Virus record (IMG/VR): IMGVR_UViG_2606217117_000004
Reading direction: 5' to 3' (one strand)
Length of the DNA stretch: 25,733 nt
Source: a virus
Lineage: Duplodnaviria > Heunggongvirae > Uroviricota > Caudoviricetes
In this document: piece after piece, positions 1 through 9,484 of the stretch
Numbering within the stretch: the stretch's first letter is position 1
How the letters are laid out: every line of letters starts with the position of its first letter
Program-made: the position numbers and the translations under genes
The notes under the pieces: generated by a model
Told to the model about the DNA's origin: nothing
Database searches by the model: none
What the model saw: only the letters and a program-made list of their open reading frames with translations

Positions 1-93
1 ACTCAGTTGCTGGTCTTTCTGACGGAGGGCTTCAGCCTGCTCAGAGAGCAACCTTTCCAGCTCTGCGATGCGAATGAGGTATTTCTGACTCAT
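1..93 (-). CDS. IS66-family transposase (Orf3/TnpC), N-terminal 31 codons only
   Basis: Reverse complement of 1..93 translates to MSQKYLIRIAELERLLSEQAEALRQKDQQLS, the typical IS66 transposase N-terminus; ATG at 93..91; continues past the window edge. Confidence 0.75.
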   Translation of the reverse strand, partial: MSQKYLIRIAELERLLSEQAEALRQKDQQLS

Positions 94-123
94 GACCGTT
101 TTTATAATGCGGTCAGGAGTTTT

Positions 124-474
124 TTACAACATTGTCAGTGAGTTACGGCTGGATGTTTTTGGCTGACGCCAGTCCAGCTTATCGAGGAGCATTGCCAGTT
201 GCGAGCGGGTAATGGATACCTTGCCGTCACGTACCGCAGGCCAGATAAACTGGCCTTCCTCCAGGCGTTTGGTGAACAGGCACAGACCATCAGCATCAGC
301 CCAAAGAATTTTGACGGTGTCACCCCGTCGGCCACGGAAGATAAACAGGTGACCGGAGAAGGGATTATCATTCAGCACATGTTGTACCTGTTCTCCCAGT
401 CCGTTGAAGGATTTACGCATATCGGTAACGCCGGCAACGAGCCAGATACGGGTACCTGATGGGAGTGAGATCAT
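124..474 (-). CDS. IS66-family Orf2 (IS66-type TnpB)
   Basis: 116-aa ORF MISLPSGTRIWLVAGVTDMRKSFNGL... matches the conserved IS66 orf2 product. Confidence 0.8.
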   Translation of the reverse strand: MISLPSGTRIWLVAGVTDMRKSFNGLGEQVQHVLNDNPFSGHLFIFRGRRGDTVKILWADADGLCLFTKRLEEGQFIWPAVRDGKVSITRSQLAMLLDKLDWRQPKTSSRNSLTML

Positions 475-896
475 CTTCCCCTCCCGGTCAGTTCACGGAT
501 CAACACTGTGAGCAGCTCTGGCGATGGATTTTCCAGCGTCATGTTACCGTGACGGAATTCCACCTTGCAGGAACTGGCACTGACTCTGGTCTGAGTGGAA
601 GTGGATAAAGACGGCGCAATGGCCGCCACAGGTTCTTTCTGCTCATCCGGCGTTATTTCTACAGGTAATAATTCAACGCCAGTGTCAGAAGAGGTCGTTA
701 CCGGAAGACGCCGCGAAACACGCCCTTCGTTCTGCCAGAGCCTGAGCCATTTGAAAATAACATTATCATTGACGCCATTTTCACGTGCAATCTGTGCAAC
801 ACAAGCTCCAGGTTGTGATGCCAGTTCCACCATACGAAGTTTGAATTCATTCGAATAGTTTTTACGAGGTTCTTTTCGCCAGTCCTGTAATTCCAT
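471..896 (-). CDS. IS66-family accessory protein Orf1 (TnpA-like)
   Basis: 141-aa ORF MELQDWRKEPRKNYSNEFKLRMVELASQPG... recognised as IS66 orf1; stop overlaps the orf2 start. Confidence 0.8.
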   Translation of the reverse strand: MELQDWRKEPRKNYSNEFKLRMVELASQPGACVAQIARENGVNDNVIFKWLRLWQNEGRVSRRLPVTTSSDTGVELLPVEITPDEQKEPVAAIAPSLSTSTQTRVSASSCKVEFRHGNMTLENPSPELLTVLIRELTGRGR

Positions 897-910
897 ACTT
901 AGATGTCCGT

Positions 911-2002
911 CTATATCAGATGGGCGTCTAAGTTACCAATTCTCGTCTGATGGCTACATACGGCGGTCAGTTTACGCTTACCCTCAATTGCAGATAATCT
1001 TTGTCTTAATTCTGCGTTTTCTTCTTCCAGTGCTGTTATCCTGTCGTCTGACTCTCTGGCTACCTGAACAAGCAAGCCAGTAACACCAGAATAATCTACA
1101 GTGTAATACCGTTCACCTTCTTCGCCTTCAGATCCGCTACCACCGTCCCTATATTTTATCGTAGAGCCTACGGACTCTGGAATTGCTTCTAAGGCTTCCT
1201 GTGCGATAACACCAGCGTAAGGCATCCCGTTTTCTTTAAGCGTGTATGTATAACCATTCATCTTACGGATGCGATTGGTTGCATTATCAATCACCTGAAT
1301 ATTATCTTTCAGGTCTCGGTCAGAGGTCTGGTTAAATGCGGTCGCTTGACATGCACCATTAACAGCAAATGCATATGTGTCATCTGTTTGTTTTTGACCG
1401 AAGAATATAAAAGCCCCACCATCTACACCAACTTCATAAACAACCGGACGGCTAGAATTGCCCCACAATTTAGCAGTAACGCCAGCGTGAGCGGTTCCCT
1501 GTGTGTTTAGTGTCATGGTCGAACCATGATTAGCATATTTGATCTGTAGTGTGTCTGTATAATCAAATTTAATCAGGGCATTATCTACACGATCCCCATA
1601 GGACATGAGGCATTTACCCATTTTCAAATAACCAGCAGTGCCAGGGAAAATTAAAGTTCCTCCGTAAAGATCACTAAAGTCCCAAAAGATACCTTTTGTC
1701 CCGTTATGTGTGACGATCCTCGTCATTGTATCTTTAGTACCATCAATATTTTTTCTGGTATATATATCACTATAAGCGTTTTCCGTTTCACCAGTCTTAT
1801 TTGACAAGTGAATCTTACCGCTAAATATAGTTCCAGTGGTCGGCAATGCCTTTTGATCATAGATTACATTGCAATAACTATTCCATGTTGTTTTATTGTC
1901 TACATATGATTTTGTTGCATAGCTTCCTTGATCAGTTTTTAGTTTACTAACATCGGATTTTAGCGTTTTGATGTCATCAGGAATTACTGTTTTTGTAACC
2001 AT
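911..2002 (-). CDS. Distal tail fibre protein with C-terminal intramolecular chaperone (peptidase S74-like) domain; 3' end replaced by IS66 sequence
   Basis: 363-aa ORF with GGAG ribosome-binding site 7 nt upstream. C-terminal SDRDLKDNIQVID...GYTYTLKENG...coiled coil resembles the auto-cleaving chaperone domain of tail fibres and endosialidases. The last ~24 codons (GKRKLTAVCSHQTRIGNLDAHLI) are read from the IS end. AT-rich codon usage. Confidence 0.6.
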   Translation of the reverse strand: MVTKTVIPDDIKTLKSDVSKLKTDQGSYATKSYVDNKTTWNSYCNVIYDQKALPTTGTIFSGKIHLSNKTGETENAYSDIYTRKNIDGTKDTMTRIVTHNGTKGIFWDFSDLYGGTLIFPGTAGYLKMGKCLMSYGDRVDNALIKFDYTDTLQIKYANHGSTMTLNTQGTAHAGVTAKLWGNSSRPVVYEVGVDGGAFIFFGQKQTDDTYAFAVNGACQATAFNQTSDRDLKDNIQVIDNATNRIRKMNGYTYTLKENGMPYAGVIAQEALEAIPESVGSTIKYRDGGSGSEGEEGERYYTVDYSGVTGLLVQVARESDDRITALEEENAELRQRLSAIEGKRKLTAVCSHQTRIGNLDAHLI

Positions 2003-2014
2003 TGTCTTACTCCA

Positions 2015-2284
2015 TTAAGCCCATGTCCTTACATGCTGATCTGTCGTAATGAAAGGCATTAAAGAAGATATGTTTTTACTGCCATCAACAATCCTCATGT
2101 TTACGAAAAAACCACCGCGATCAATGCCTGTACATCTTTCGTTTTCTGGCTCCTCGTAATCAATAATGCAGCCAATAACATCAACAAGAACCCCATTTTC
2201 TTCTTCAAGACTGAACAGGCCACTGTCATATACAATTGCGTTAAACTGTTCTCTGTTATCGAATCGTAATGTTATATCCCGCAT
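2015..2284 (-). CDS. Hypothetical small acidic protein (89 aa) between the two fibre genes
   Basis: ORF whose ATG overlaps the stop of the upstream fibre gene (TAATG), indicating translational coupling. AT-rich; no family recognised. Confidence 0.45.
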   Translation of the reverse strand: MRDITLRFDNREQFNAIVYDSGLFSLEEENGVLVDVIGCIIDYEEPENERCTGIDRGGFFVNMRIVDGSKNISSLMPFITTDQHVRTWA

Positions 2285-4638
2285 TATACGTATTCCTTAA
2301 GCTGCGTATCTGACAATGCTCTGTTCCAGAAACGGAGGTTTTTTATATGACCATTAAGGTGTCGTAATCCTGTCGTCGTTTGCCCCCCGATACGAATCAC
2401 GGCTGCTTCACGAATATATTTCCATACTGTTTTGGTTTCAGTGCTTATATTCTTATTTGCAAATGAGCATGTCATGCCGTCAGCCTTAACCCTGAATCCC
2501 ATAACGAGATCTCTTACTCCGCATGACTCATATACACGCCGGTTAGCCCCGCCTATATCGCAATACGAATAACCATCCTGACTGATAGTTCCAGAAGAAC
2601 CAAACCCCATAATAAATGGGCCTCCGGACTGGTGATTTTCTGAATCAATGACACGCGGTGCAGCATTATGAGAAATAAACCAGTTTTTATGGACTTCCAC
2701 CATGAACGTAAAAGGCATGGTATACATATTTTTCATCAGCGGAAATTTACATAAATCTGATGCACGAGTCGCTGGCTCTGTTGTCGTTATGATAAAGGAA
2801 GTTGCACAAGCACCATACTCGAATTGCGGGGTGGTTACTTCTATCCAGTCACCTGTTGCAAAAGCCCCCACTGCTCTGTCGGCTGCAATTTGCAGCTGCG
2901 TACCAACCATTCCCCATTCTGGCAGACATTTCAGTGTTGCCTGAAAATATATCCATCCACTACCAGGGTCGATTTCAAAGTTTGCTGTTAATAGCTGGGC
3001 ATTACCACCCGTAATTTGTAGTTCATGAGTCTGTAATGACAAATAGGCGTCACAAAGGAAAGTGTATCCTTCCGAGTTATACCGTTCAAAACGGATACGT
3101 GCGCGAACATTGAGATCACTTCTTACCCTGAACGACGCGGTAACATACGGACCTTTACTGTACTGATCATCGCCAGTCACATCTATGCCTTTATTACCAG
3201 CAACTGTGCATATATTTCTCCCTGTTGTCGTTCCTGCTATCTCACTTCCTACTGTGAAACGTCCATATTTAAACTCAAATTCATCTGTTGATGATGTTAC
3301 AGATATACCACCGCTTTTATTCCACGCATCAGGATTAAAACTATTTACGAACATGTTTGTTCGCTGATTCTCTATCAGCAAACCATATTTTTCAAAACGA
3401 GGAACGTTATTCCCTGCCACGGTAATATGCCCGGACTTATCAATATACGTTGCTGATGAAGCGCGGCTAAATTGGCATATGCCATTAACAGGCATTGTTA
3501 TTTCATCACTGCCGATGGTTATTGTTTTATAGCCCGGGGCATACCCTGTTATCGCTTCCAGAGAATCATTCAAGGGTAGCCAGATATCAGGAAGCGGAGG
3601 GACTGAAGCAGGATCAGCGGCATCTTCTGCAATCCGGGCTGCATTCTCTGCTCTTGTTGCGGCTGACGTTGCTTCTATCTCGCTGGCTGCTGCTTTTGTT
3701 TCACTCGTCTTTGCGTTAGTTTCACTGGTTTTTGCAGCTTTTTGGCTATTAGCTGCCGCACTTGCAGAACCAGCTGCGGCACTCTCGCTTTGGGCCGCTG
3801 CATCCTGACTGTTTTTTGCCGCAGTTTCGCTGGCTTTGGCATTCGTTTCGCTGGTCTTCGCTGCCGTCTGGCTGGACTTTGCGTTAGTTTCACTCGTCTT
3901 CGCAGCTTTCTGGCTGTTAGCCGCAGCAGTTGCTGATCCAGCTGCTGAAGTCGCAGAACCGGCTGCTGCGCTCTCGCTTTCAGCTGCTGCAGCCTGGCTG
4001 TTTTTTGCCGCAGTTTCACTGGCTTTAGCATTCGTTTCGCTGGTTTTCGCTGCCGTCTGGCTGGACTTTGCGTTGGTTTCGCTCGTCTTTGCTGCTGTCT
4101 CGCTGTTTTTCGCGTTGGTTTCTGATTTTTTAGCTGCTGTCGCGGAATTTGCCGATGCAGTCTGCGAGGCCGCTGCCGCCTGTGCGCTGTTAGCTGCATT
4201 CGTTTCTGAGGTTTTCGCCGCGTTCTTCGATGATGCCGCTGCAGTTTCGGATTTCTTTGCCGCCGCTGCGCTCTGAGAGGCAGCTTCAGCGTTACGTGCT
4301 GCTTCTTCCACCATAGCCTCAAAACGGCGTAATGCCTCCGGCATGACATCCTCTTCCGTCATGGCACCGAGAAAATCATTCAGCGTCCCCGGCTTAGAAT
4401 CTTCATACACGGTGATGGTCCCGGCATGTGAAGGCGGAAAACCTTCAACCAGCAGGGTGACGTTGTACTGGCCATACTCAACATCCATGCTGTAACGCCC
4501 GGCTTCATCCGGATTTTCAGAGGCCACCGTGTTCACCAGTACCGTGGTGCTGTTACGCTTTGCCTTCAGTTGAATAGTGCAGTTCTGTATTGGTTTTCCC
4601 GCACCATCTTTCAGCACACCTGAAATCTGTACTGCCAT
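2284..4638 (-). CDS. stf: Side tail fibre protein: lambda Stf-like N-terminus, Ala/Ser/Thr-rich repeat shaft, lectin-like (ConA/LamG-type) C-terminal domain
   Basis: N-terminus MAVQISGVLKDGAGKPIQNCTIQLKAKRNSTT... matches lambda Stf from memory. Likely start is the ATG at 4638 (GGAG upstream); the ORF track starts at a GTG at 4644. C-terminus ...GLRHLNGHIKNLRFWNRALSDTQLKEYV resembles Laminin_G_3 / ConA-like lectin domains. Confidence 0.8.
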   Translation of the reverse strand: MAVQISGVLKDGAGKPIQNCTIQLKAKRNSTTVLVNTVASENPDEAGRYSMDVEYGQYNVTLLVEGFPPSHAGTITVYEDSKPGTLNDFLGAMTEEDVMPEALRRFEAMVEEAARNAEAASQSAAAAKKSETAAASSKNAAKTSETNAANSAQAAAASQTASANSATAAKKSETNAKNSETAAKTSETNAKSSQTAAKTSETNAKASETAAKNSQAAAAESESAAAGSATSAAGSATAAANSQKAAKTSETNAKSSQTAAKTSETNAKASETAAKNSQDAAAQSESAAAGSASAAANSQKAAKTSETNAKTSETKAAASEIEATSAATRAENAARIAEDAADPASVPPLPDIWLPLNDSLEAITGYAPGYKTITIGSDEITMPVNGICQFSRASSATYIDKSGHITVAGNNVPRFEKYGLLIENQRTNMFVNSFNPDAWNKSGGISVTSSTDEFEFKYGRFTVGSEIAGTTTGRNICTVAGNKGIDVTGDDQYSKGPYVTASFRVRSDLNVRARIRFERYNSEGYTFLCDAYLSLQTHELQITGGNAQLLTANFEIDPGSGWIYFQATLKCLPEWGMVGTQLQIAADRAVGAFATGDWIEVTTPQFEYGACATSFIITTTEPATRASDLCKFPLMKNMYTMPFTFMVEVHKNWFISHNAAPRVIDSENHQSGGPFIMGFGSSGTISQDGYSYCDIGGANRRVYESCGVRDLVMGFRVKADGMTCSFANKNISTETKTVWKYIREAAVIRIGGQTTTGLRHLNGHIKNLRFWNRALSDTQLKEYV
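3700..4190 (-). repeat. Intragenic tandem direct repeats (~186-bp unit, about 2.5 copies) in the stf shaft
   Basis: Near-identical nucleotide blocks start near 3814 and 4002, with a partial copy near 3700. They encode repeated KTSETNAKSSQTAAKTSETNAKASETAAKNSQ...SESAAAGSA...NSQKAA units. Confidence 0.7.
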
Positions 4639-4646
4639 ACTCACTC

Positions 4647-4677
4647 CACAAATAAAAAAGGCGCCATTGCTGGCGCC
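4647..4677 (-). terminator. Intrinsic terminator between J and stf
   Basis: On the minus strand: 7-bp perfect stem GGCGCCA / TGGCGCC with GCAA loop (4660..4677), followed by TTTTTTATTT (4650..4659), directly downstream of the J stop. Confidence 0.6.
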
Positions 4678-4698
4678 CGTATTGGGGTTATAAATATT

Positions 4699-7600
4699 TC
4701 AACGGATACTGATACCGGAAGCAGCTTTTTTGGTCACAATCACCGTACAGTCTGTGATGTTACCTGCGCCCTGATTGCCTTTCTGGAAAATCTTAAACTC
4801 CAGAGTGACGTTACCACCACCACTCGGCATATCAATAACCGCACTGTAACTACCGGGAATGGCTCCTTTAGTTTCTCTGGATGCGATTAATACGCCATTT
4901 TTGCGAACTTCAAAACCATAACCCGTGTATCGCGTACCTCCCGGGTTATTACCGCTCCCCGGATCGTCATACGCCACACCGTTAAAAATAATGGGCGGAA
5001 TAATGATTTGGCGGTCAAAGTTATGATCATCGTAAATGGTGACTGTAACCGTCCCGTTTGGTGTTTCCGTGTTACCCCACGTACCAGCCTTTTTCGGGAA
5101 TGATTTGGATACAGTTTTAACGAAGTCACCTCTGACCTGGTTCGCCTCCAGCATGCCCTTAATCGTACAGTTTTCATTTACCGTGACATTATTGAGCGTC
5201 CCGGAGTTCGCATTCACGTTACCGCTGATATCAGCATTTCTCGCCGTCAGCCGCCCGTCCGGTGTCAGGGAAAATGCCGGAGGATTACCGCCACTGGTAA
5301 TGGTGGGAGCCGTCAGATACTTCAGGAACACTTCGTTCATGAATATCTGGTTGCCCTGCGCCACAAACATCGGCGTTTCATTCCCGTTTGCCGGGTCAAT
5401 AAACGCGATACGGTTAGCGGCAACCAGGAACTGGCTCAGTTTGCCTTCCTCCGTATCCTCCATGCTGAGGCCAAGCCCCGCGACATAATGTTTGCCGTCT
5501 TTGGTCTGCTCAATTTTGACGCCCCACATGGCATTCCATTTATCGTTGGCGTCCTTCCACTCTTTCGAAAACTCCTCCAGTTTGCTGGCGTTATCCTCCG
5601 TCAGCTCGACTTTTTCCAGCAGCTCCTTGCCGAGATGGGATTCGGTTATCTGGCCTTTGAAAAAATCCAGGTAACCTTCCGCATCATCGCTCGCCCGACC
5701 GACGGCCTCCACGAATGCCGATTTGCCAACGGTGTTCACACTGCGAACGTAAAAATAATAATCATGGCCCGGCTTAATATTGATACTGGCAGCTATCCAG
5801 TACAGCGCCGTGCCAAGATAGCGGGCTGTGGTTTCAACCTGCCTGATATCGGTAATCCGCTTTTCCGAGAACCAGAACTCAAACTGTACCGTCGGATCAT
5901 AAACGGCAAGATGCGGCGTGGCGGTTATCTGAAAATAGCCCGGCGTCAGCTCAATCCGAGATGGCGCTGCCGGTGCGGCAATCCGGAACGATACCGACGC
6001 CGGATCGCCCTGCTGCCCCCAGGCATTTGCCGCCCGGACTGTCAGCCTGTAGTTTCCCAGCGCCAGTTGCGTGAAGCGGTATGTGGTTTCCGTCGTCCGG
6101 GCCGTGCTGACCAGCCGCTCACTGCCGTCATCCGCTGCCACGGTCAGGCGAAGCATAAAGCTCACCCCCTTCACCACCTTCGGCGTATCCCAGCGCGCCA
6201 GCACCTGGTATTCCCCGCTGTCTGCAGTGACTTCTGCGGTCAGATGCTGCACTGCTGGCGGCGTGACACCATTCACCGTGCCGCTCTGGTCACCGTCAAA
6301 GTGCGCCCCGTTATCCACGATGGCTTCTTTCTCCGGTACATGCTGCACGGCAGTGATGGCATACGTACCGTCATCGTTCTCACGGATACTCACACAGCGG
6401 AACAGGCGCTGGCGCAGCGTCGGCAGCTTCAGCCCCCACACGCTGTACTCGGCAACGCCGTCAGGAACACGGCTCACTTTTACCTTCACGCCGTCGGTGA
6501 CGGACTGAACCTCCACGCTGACCGGACTCCCCTGCCCGTCAACCAGGCTTATCAGCGTGGTGCCGGAAGATGGCAGCGTGATTTCACGGTCGAGCGTCAG
6601 CGTCCGGGTCTGGCTGTTTACCGCCAGCACGCGCCCGCCGGTGCTGATACCGGCATAGTCATCATCGCAGATTTCAATGACATCGCCCGGTACATGGCGA
6701 AGCCCTTCGGCACCCACGCTGAAGTCCACGGTCTGCGTTTCCAGCAGTTCTGTTTTAATCAGCCACAGCCCGGCGCGATGTGCCTGCCCCCGGCTGGTAC
6801 AGCCAAAAGCATCCATCTTCGTGACGCTACGACCGTAACGGGCAATGGCCTGCGTGTCCTCCACAAGCTCTGTCGCCGTCTCCCAGCCGTTATTCGGGTC
6901 AATCCAGTTCACCTCAACGGCATTATGGCGGTCCTTCAGGGCGCTGAAGCTGTAGCGGAACGGCGCACCATCATCCGGCATCACCACATTACTGCGGTTA
7001 TAGGTCCACACCTTATCCGACGGTCGGTCCTGCACGAACGTCAGCGTCTGCCCGTTCCATACCGGCATACAGCGCATCGCCGAGCAGAAATCACTGAGCA
7101 CATCCCACGCCTTGCGCTGTGTGGTCAGGTACGCATTACAGGTGATGCGCGGCTCCGTGCCGCCAAAACCGTCCGGCACCGACTGATCGCAATGCTGGCC
7201 GATGACATACAGCGCCCATTTGTCCACATCCGCCGCACCAAGACGTTTCCCCATGCCGTAGCGCGGATGGGTCAGCATATCCCACAGACACCAGGCCATG
7301 TTGTTGCTGTATGCTGGCTTAAACGTTCCGTCCCAGATACCGCTGTATTGCCGCGTCTGCGGGTTATAGTTCGACGGCACCTGCAGAATACGCCCGCGCA
7401 GATGATAATTACGGCTCACCTGCTGGCTGCCGAACTGCTCCGAGTCCACCTGCACGCCGACCAGTGCCGTGTTCGGGTAGCACTGTTTCACATCGATGAT
7501 TTCGGTGTATGACGACCAGAGCGTTTTGTTCTGCAGCTGGTCTGTGGTGCTGTCCGGCGTCATCCTGCGCATCCGGATACTGAACGGGCGCGGCGGCAGG

Positions 7601-8112
7601 TTACCCACCACCACCGAGGCCAGATACTGCGAGGTGGTTTTGCCCTTAATGGTGATGTCTTTTTCCGTCACCCAGCCACCATTACGCTGTATCTGAACCA
7701 GCAGGCGGACTTCCGACGGATTCCTGTCCCCCTTTGAGGTGGTTTCCACCAGTGCCTGCACGCCGAAGGTAAAACGCAGTCGGTCAATGTTTGCCGACGT
7801 GATGGTCCGGGTGATCGGCGTGTCGTATTTCACTTCCGTACCCAGCACCGTCTCGGAGCCGGAGGATTCAAATCCCTCCGGCGGTGTCTGCTCCTGCTCA
7901 CCGGCCCGGAACACCACCGTGACGCCGGAGATGTTGGTATTCCCCTCACTGTCCAGCACTGGCGTACTGTTCAGCAGCACGCTTTTTAATCCATCCACCG
8001 GACCTTCAATCGGCCCTTCGCTGATGGCATCGATCACACTCAGCAACTGCGTGGACTTCAGGTTGTCCTTCGCTTCGCGCGGAGTATGCCCCTTACTGCT
8101 GCCTTTACCCAT
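4699..8112 (-). CDS. J: Central tail fibre / host specificity protein J
   Basis: 1137-aa ORF; the N-terminus and most of the length look lambda gpJ-like. The C-terminal ~145 aa appear to differ from my recollection of lambda J. Confidence 0.9.
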
Positions 8113-8171
8113 TCCTCACGCTCCATAAACGACAAAACCGCCCGGAGGCGGTTTCACATAAACGTTTTTCA

Positions 8172-8843
8172 TCAGCGACCAATCACCACAACCTGACCAC
8201 CATCCCCTTCGTCTGCCGTGCTGATCTCCTGAGAGACCACCCGCGACCCCACGCGCATTTCACCGTACAGAACGGGCAGAACATTGCCCTGGGCAACCAT
8301 GTTATCCAGTGAGGAGAAATAGGTGTTCTGTTTGCCGTTATCTGTACTTGCTGCCGTGGGCGTCCTGGCTTTCGGTGCCAACATCTGCGCCACACCACCG
8401 AGCACCATACTGGCACCGAGAGAAAACAGGATACCGGTCATACCACCGGCCCCAATGGCTGCCCCCCATGCTGCAAGGGTGGCTCCGGCAGTAAAGAATG
8501 ATCCGGCAATGGCGGCAGCCCCCAGAACAATCTGGAATACGCCCCCTGACTTGGCCCCGGCGACTCTGGGAACAATATGAATCACAGCGCCGTCAGGCAG
8601 AGTCTCATGTAACTGCGCCGTTAACCCGGACGTGCTGACGTCCCGCCCGGCAATCCGTACCTGATACCAGCCGTCGCTCAGTTTCTGACGAAACGCCGGG
8701 AGCTGTGTGGCAAGTGCGCGGATGGCTTCAGCCCCCGTTTTCACACGAAGGTCGATGCGGCGGCCAAATCGTTGCAAATCCCCGTAAAGGCAGATGCGTG
8801 CCATTCCCGGTGACGCCAGAGGGAGTGTGTGCGTCGCTGCCAT
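8172..8843 (-). CDS. I: Tail tip assembly protein I
   Basis: 223 aa, lambda gpI-like; overlaps K by 103 nt as in lambda. Confidence 0.9.
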   Translation of the reverse strand: MAATHTLPLASPGMARICLYGDLQRFGRRIDLRVKTGAEAIRALATQLPAFRQKLSDGWYQVRIAGRDVSTSGLTAQLHETLPDGAVIHIVPRVAGAKSGGVFQIVLGAAAIAGSFFTAGATLAAWGAAIGAGGMTGILFSLGASMVLGGVAQMLAPKARTPTAASTDNGKQNTYFSSLDNMVAQGNVLPVLYGEMRVGSRVVSQEISTADEGDGGQVVVIGR

Positions 8844-9484
8844 TTGTCGGTGTACCTCTCTCGTTTGCTCAGTTGTTCAGGAATATGGTGCAGCAGCTCG
8901 CTGTCACCACAGTAAATGGCGGCATGATTCGGCACCGATGAACCAAAACAGCACAGCAGCACATCGCCCGGTTGTGCTGATGACAACGGCACCTGATACA
9001 GCCCTGTGGCCTCCAGATTATCCAGATAGAGATTCTGACCGTGACGCCACCAGTCATCCCCGCGATGAAAATCCGGCATCTCAATCCCCGCCAGATGATA
9101 AGCATCCCGGAACAGCGTGTAACAGTCCGTCACCCCGTGCTCAAAGCGCCGCCCGGTGAGATGCGGCACACAGCGGAACTTATGAATCGTCCCCCGGCAG
9201 ACCAGCCACCACGGCAAATCACTCTGCACCTGCAGCCGCCGGTCGGCCTCACTCAGCCAGGGCAGACCTCCGGGGTGGCTGTGGACCAGCGCCATAATCT
9301 CACCCTGCATTTCTGCCTGCAGCCAGTCTTCCGGCGACATACGGAAATACGCCTCCGGCTCACCGGAGATATTCACGCAGGGGAAATATCTTTCCCCCTC
9401 CGGCGTGCTTACCACGAAGCCGCACGACTCCGCTGGCGCACATCGCCGGGCGTGCGCCAGAATCGCTGATTCTGTCTGTGTCAT
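8741..9484 (-). CDS. K: Tail tip assembly protein K (MPN/JAB plus NlpC/P60-like); long form
   Basis: 247-aa ORF with HSHPGG metal-binding motif and upstream Glu residues. An internal ATG at 9340 would give the 199-aa product of the classical lambda annotation. Confidence 0.85.
   Translation of the reverse strand: MTQTESAILAHARRCAPAESCGFVVSTPEGERYFPCVNISGEPEAYFRMSPEDWLQAEMQGEIMALVHSHPGGLPWLSEADRRLQVQSDLPWWLVCRGTIHKFRCVPHLTGRRFEHGVTDCYTLFRDAYHLAGIEMPDFHRGDDWWRHGQNLYLDNLEATGLYQVPLSSAQPGDVLLCCFGSSVPNHAAIYCGDSELLHHIPEQLSKRERYTDKWQRRTHSLWRHREWHASAFTGICNDLAAASTFV

Follow-up and report, generated by a model that had tools for sequence, protein, structure and literature searches.

Does a prophage whose J protein is lambda-like over most of its length also recognise LamB, the receptor of lambda? 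The question is raised by a 25,733-nucleotide stretch of viral DNA (hereafter the window), for which the first-pass annotation had claimed that the last ~145 residues of J do not resemble the LamB-binding end of lambda J and that a different outer-membrane receptor would be used. Host specificity is set by the C-terminal part of gpJ (PMC11101478, PMC3509688). As a whole, the window proved to be late-region DNA of a lambda-like prophage, ~97% identical to lambda over the greater part of the head and tail genes, and positions 1-9000 were 100% identical to prophages of two human E. coli isolates. J sits in a lambda-like tail gene cluster, where it follows H, M, L, K and I and precedes the side tail fibre genes. 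Lambda-like late regions with annotated H, M, L, K and I showed 96-99% DNA identity to the window, and the gene order around J in phage PhiR11_1 is that of the window. The features are collected in Table 1, including the minus-strand placement of J, which the first-pass annotation had not mentioned; the stop codon of J occupies 4699..4701.

Pfam analysis of J identified FNIII-A_GpJ, Phage-tail_3, Ig_J, Ig_J_second, Phage_Tail_Tip and Ig_GpJ_C in the expected order. Each of the six families was matched at full length and above its curated cut-off, which places the protein among the lambda-type gpJ proteins. Residues ~1-983 comprise the hub domains, the FNIII domains, the alpha-helical shaft and the central straight fibre. 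Ig_GpJ_C (PF12421) covers residues 1001-1136 with 88.9 bits against a cut-off of 26.2, and the Ig-like receptor-binding domain (RBD) proper corresponds to residues ~1001-1136.

Table 1. Features of the J region and its surroundings in the window.
Feature	Coordinates	Strand	Basis or description
Gene J, tail-tip attachment protein / central tail fibre	4699..8112	minus	1137-aa ORF plus stop
Lambda-like part of J, residues ~1-983	5164..8112	minus	97% aa identity to lambda and 434
434-type RBD cassette, residues ~984-1137	4702..5163	minus	DNA and aa identity to 434
J-stf intergenic region, 434-type hairpin plus T-run	4645..4698	minus	Comparison with the annotated terminator of the 434 record
784-aa side tail fibre	within 911-4638	minus	PF08400 N-terminus, long Ala/Ser/Thr-rich repeats, full-length phrog_1419 match
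89-aa ORF	within 911-4638	minus	phrog_1361
363-aa second fibre protein	within 911-4638	minus	Peptidase_S74 intramolecular chaperone domain, phrog_4563
HTH_Tnp_1 ORF	471..896		IS66-family
TnpB_IS66 ORF	124..474		IS66-family

When window J was compared with lambda J (NC_001416) by BLASTP, the two proteins were 88% identical over the full length and the mismatches clustered at the C-terminal end. Counted by alignment columns, identity was 97.1% in columns 1-960, fell to 80% in columns 961-985 and was 34.8% in the final 158; in an alignment of the RBD alone it was 62/154 (40%). Relative to lambda, the RBD carries a 2-residue insertion, a 6-residue insertion and a ~6-residue deletion. The change was also abrupt at the DNA level. 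In 30-nt steps, identity to lambda was 0.77-0.93 up to J nt ~2949, 0.63 at J nt 2950-2979 and 0.37-0.43 thereafter, which puts the break at J nt ~2950, or window ~5163. These results bear out the claim that the end of J is unlike the LamB-binding end of lambda J, with 35-40% identity there against 97% elsewhere. Both values for this end (34.8% and 40%) lie clearly below 90%, the mark set in advance for the last 150 residues, and the domain falls outside the lambda-type LamB-binding class, for which identity above 90% across lambda J residues ~985-1132 was required. The interval originally assigned to the divergence, 4699-5150, needed a small correction: its right edge in the sense of J coincides with the final base of the stop codon, and its left edge fell ~13 nt short of the real breakpoint. 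The peptide cited for it (...ISIR) corresponds to J residues 995-1137, window 4702..5130.

The sequence beyond the break was of the phage 434 type. From residue 975 to the end, window J and 434 J (OL657226) were identical at 150 of 163 positions (92%) without a gap, and the three indels against lambda were common to both, which places the window domain in the 434-type (h434) class. The DNA of the cassette from J nt 2950 was 0.83-0.97 identical to 434 and 0.37-0.63 identical to lambda. Between J nt 2952 and the stop codon, sites that distinguish lambda from 434 were mostly of the 434 type, with scattered exceptions. Upstream of the RBD (5164-8112), the window alternates at such sites between the lambda and the 434 state in many short runs, forming a fine mosaic. 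In this conserved part of J the pattern looks like the outcome of frequent fine-scale recombination; by contrast, the RBD boundary is single and clean. Exchange of C-terminal J cassettes between lambdoid phages is a textbook case of mosaicism.

A tblastn search of 50,697 phage records with the last 149 residues of J gave matches in 243, and the identities were bimodal, with 74 records at 90% or higher and 169 below 60%. The RBD was 100% identical in the deposited phages PhiR11_1, PhiR11_1_star, Tritos, HannyBb and PhiR63_1. The group at 90% or higher also includes mEp460 (96%), phage 2851, an Stx2c phage, along with several Stx-converting phages (95%), and phage 434 (92.6%). When a large protein database was searched with the RBD, the matches were mostly partial J fragments at 91-100% identity, with a few at 42-50%; the fragments came from E. 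coli, E. albertii and Shigella, and the search yielded no functional information on the RBD beyond alignment material. Collectively, as judged by sequence comparison, the diverged end of J is a 434/h434-type RBD cassette on a lambda-like J, and this exact RBD is already in public phage records. It is a long-known host-range cassette and an ordinary E. coli prophage variant, and nothing in the finding itself is new.

The frequency of the two domain types in E. coli was then counted. By megablast, the 462-nt RBD segment was present in 2112 of 5426 complete E. coli genomes (39%). Among the 2115 E. coli records with a match, DNA identity was 90-95% in 2059 and at least 99% in 45. The equivalent lambda segment was present in 98 of the 5426 genomes (under 2%), in every case at 99% identity or higher, and the five top-listed genomes were laboratory strains, namely a K-12 derivative, a B derivative, C41(DE3), C43(DE3) and BL21-Gold(DE3). 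The clusters in the large protein database, which range from hundreds to 1400 sequences of E. coli, E. albertii and Shigella, point the same way. By count, the 434-type RBD is the common natural type in E. coli, and it is the RBD of textbook lambda that is rare. This census is the sole point of the analysis that is of mild general use.

We wanted to relate the domain type to a receptor. It has been reported that a 434 tail fibre gene in place of lambda J redirects lambda to OmpC, the receptor of 434 (PMC11101478, PMC3509688). In the sequenced lambda h434 imm21 hybrid, J is of lambda origin as far as nt 2115, and 434 DNA takes over from nt 2133 and extends through lom and stf. The hybrid is consistent with the published OmpC switch, but with lom and stf inside its 434 segment it does not, taken alone, narrow OmpC use down to the last 150 residues. 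Since 434 and the lambda h434 hybrids use OmpC and not LamB, OmpC is the likeliest receptor here, and by homology to 434 the window phage would most likely use OmpC rather than LamB. The claim that the receptor differs from that of lambda thus gains support from homology, the RBD being 92% identical to that of an OmpC-using phage. The record of PhiR11_1, whose RBD is that of the window, names E. coli K-12 MG1655 as host. A literature search for adsorption or knockout data on the window RBD allele or its carriers (PhiR11_1, Tritos, HannyBb and the ECOR13-propagated set) found none, and PMC12315714, considered as a source on the phages with the identical RBD, describes other material. In phage 21, a single mutation or substitution in J adds OmpC as a receptor (PMC11336670), and the A8 and 1A2 gpJ RBDs both use OmpC and differ in the subsets that they accept among 23 OmpC variants (PMC11338833). 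OmpC use spans more than one RBD class, as A8, 1A2 and phi330 (below) show by their sequences.

An AlphaFold2 model of J residues 975-1137 was built as a monomer from a 12-sequence alignment; two chimeric fragments (P0056 and P0057) were left out of the RBD family alignment. The model was an all-beta domain of medium confidence (mean pLDDT 75, pTM 0.71). Confidence was low in the first 20 residues, at positions 77-79 and 82-84, and in the C-terminal 6 residues. Its strong PDB matches were gpJ RBDs alone (TMq 0.72-0.73). The best was A8 gpJ with OmpC (9WCB, E 3.4e-13, TMq 0.73), and the others were A8 gpJ closed (9WCA), lambda gpJ closed (8XCK) and lambda gpJ with LamB (8XCJ, TMq 0.72). The A8 gpJ RBD was also the best PDB match by sequence. 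In lambda, the RBD is Ig-like and its four bottom loops enter the LamB trimer; the spreading of the three RBDs is relayed up the fibre and the tail tip opens (PMC11101478). We propose that a 434-type RBD cassette was joined to an otherwise lambda-like J through homologous recombination, and that three Ig-like copies of the domain would cap the central tail fibre, as in lambda. The bottom loops would then dock on a trimeric outer-membrane porin, most likely OmpC rather than LamB for a domain of the 434 type, and this docking would trigger tail-tip opening. The docking and trigger steps are carried over by analogy from 434 genetics and from the lambda-LamB and A8-OmpC structures. Taken as a whole, from cassette to OmpC, we consider this explanation highly probable.

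The RBD of the window is not the same as that of 434, and the differences could matter for the choice of porin. Within residues 975-1137 there are 13 substitutions, located between 978 and 1115, and two of the window residues, T1000 and Y1027, were unseen in 11 other aligned family members. If the 434-type domain of the window bound another porin, such as OmpF, or certain OmpC variants only, its host range would be unlike that of 434. The minority status of the allele fits this, with DNA at least 99% identical in those 45 records only against 2059 at 90-95%, as do the different OmpC variants accepted by A8 and 1A2 (PMC11338833) and the OmpC use brought by one J mutation in phage 21 (PMC11336670). 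Such a minority allele might be tuned to particular OmpC surface-loop variants or extended to OmpF, and if this were true, alleles belonging to a single RBD class would divide E. coli lineages among themselves according to porin variant. We regard this as unlikely. The majority of the substitutions are conservative (V/I, S/A, N/S, N/D), PhiR11_1 with the identical RBD is recorded on K-12 MG1655, and 434 is a classical K-12 phage. Furthermore, dN/dS for the window allele against that of 434 came to 0.148 within the RBD and 0.067 over the remainder of J. Values this low give no hint of strong diversifying selection, and no positive-selection signal was found at this level of comparison. They indicate that the RBD is under purifying selection, somewhat relaxed relative to the other parts of J, and that the domain is not decaying.

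Evident purifying selection also argues against a decayed or non-functional J end in a defective prophage. An IS66-family element lies ~3.8 kb downstream, where it has modified a fibre gene at its 3' end, and lom is missing, as such a remnant might show. Yet the reading frame of J is uninterrupted over its 1137 aa and each of the six gpJ Pfam domains is full-length, and the RBD is identical in five deposited phage records, making this the least probable of the readings considered. Scarcely more probable is that the domain still binds LamB like lambda J and has diverged through neutral drift in a fast-evolving domain. The lambda RBD fold is retained (TMq 0.72 to 8XCK and 8XCJ) and the core motifs DDHxFDRQ, DMPxGxG and KKxxxGIS are conserved, both of which would be expected if LamB binding had been kept. 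Against this stand the mere 35-40% identity to lambda with three indels, the report that the near-identical 434 domain sends lambda to OmpC, and the abrupt DNA break beside flanks of 80-97% identity, which fits cassette exchange and not gradual drift.

With the acquired 434-type cassette as the preferred reading, the receptor-binding end of J is to be annotated as 434/h434-type, with OmpC as the probable receptor and not LamB. The receptor label bears on the strains predicted for infection or lysogeny. Swapping of J cassettes has already been used in engineering, as in the lambda gpJ chimeras A8 and 1A2 aimed at OmpC.

The junction between J and stf was compared with those of related phages, with lambda h434 imm21 serving as the stand-in for 434 downstream of J. 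The 434-like sequence runs ~50 nt beyond the J stop codon, through the hairpin, and BLASTN against 434 gave 85.5% identity over the first 69 nt downstream of J; lambda differs there. The hairpin is GGGCGCCAGCAATGGCGCCTTTTTTATT in the window and GGGCACCAGAAATGGTGCCTTTTTTATT in 434, and the stem change in the window preserves the base pair. Between J and stf (window 4638-4701) lom is absent, and the hairpin and T-run are followed by the stf ribosome-binding site and ATG. In lambda and 434, a ~600-nt gene of the lom/Ail family occupies this position between two terminators; PhiR11_1 likewise has no lom at the junction. The start of stf is likely the ATG at 4638 rather than the GTG at 4644 of the ORF list.

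The fibre module beyond the junction, made up of the side tail fibre, the 89-aa ORF and the second fibre, is unlike that of lambda. The IS66-family ORFs (124..474 and 471..896) adjoin the second fibre gene at its 3' end. Compared with a 346-aa protein of PhiR11_1, the last 6 codons are swapped for 23 unrelated codons in the window, and this altered end probably arose when an IS inserted into the terminal part of the chaperone domain.

A further observation concerns the conserved part of J. A lambda J peptide has been reported as the trigger of the prophage-encoded abortive-infection nuclease HepS (PMC13043305). The corresponding region, J residues 902-933 (window 5314-5409), keeps F924 and carries the changes D927E and R932Y. 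Because the trigger region is conserved, including the key F924, the window phage would probably be sensed by HepS.

Among known J proteins, that of PhiR11_1 (PV340547, XSB41485.1) is identical to window J at 1135 of 1137 residues and at 100% in the RBD; the two differences, V978I and E980Q, lie just upstream of the domain. The late region is shared as well, with 99.4% DNA identity over window 982-25000 and the same lom-less J-stf arrangement, and the similarity stops at window 982, where the window has the IS66-family ORFs. The J protein of 434 (OL657226, UMO75286.1) also has 1137 aa and resembles window J in its indel pattern against lambda, its C-terminal end and a similar hairpin past the stop codon; identity is 97% for residues 1-960 and 92% for the RBD region. 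It differs by the 13 substitutions noted above, and 434 has a lom-like gene after J and other side tail fibre genes. The lambda gpJ RBD studied with LamB (8XCJ, 8XCK; PMC11101478) shares PF12421, the Ig-like fold of the model and the J protein upstream, whereas its sequence is 35-40% identical with indels and its receptor is LamB. The OmpC-dependent EHEC siphophage phi330 was considered as a member of the 434-type class and rejected, its RBD being reported as 35-40% identical to those of 434 and lambda. The engineered chimeras A8 and 1A2 were likewise rejected as 434-type, A8 at 48% identity and 1A2 for a 3' end that encodes other sequence, and five DNA strings of the window RBD had no occurrence in the supplement of PMC11338833. 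The A8 gpJ RBD with OmpC (9WCA, 9WCB; PMC11338833) is, like that of the window, a natural gpJ C-terminal variant, and it is an OmpC user. At 74/154 identical residues (48%) it belongs to a separate RBD class, and the fold is common to both (TMq 0.73).
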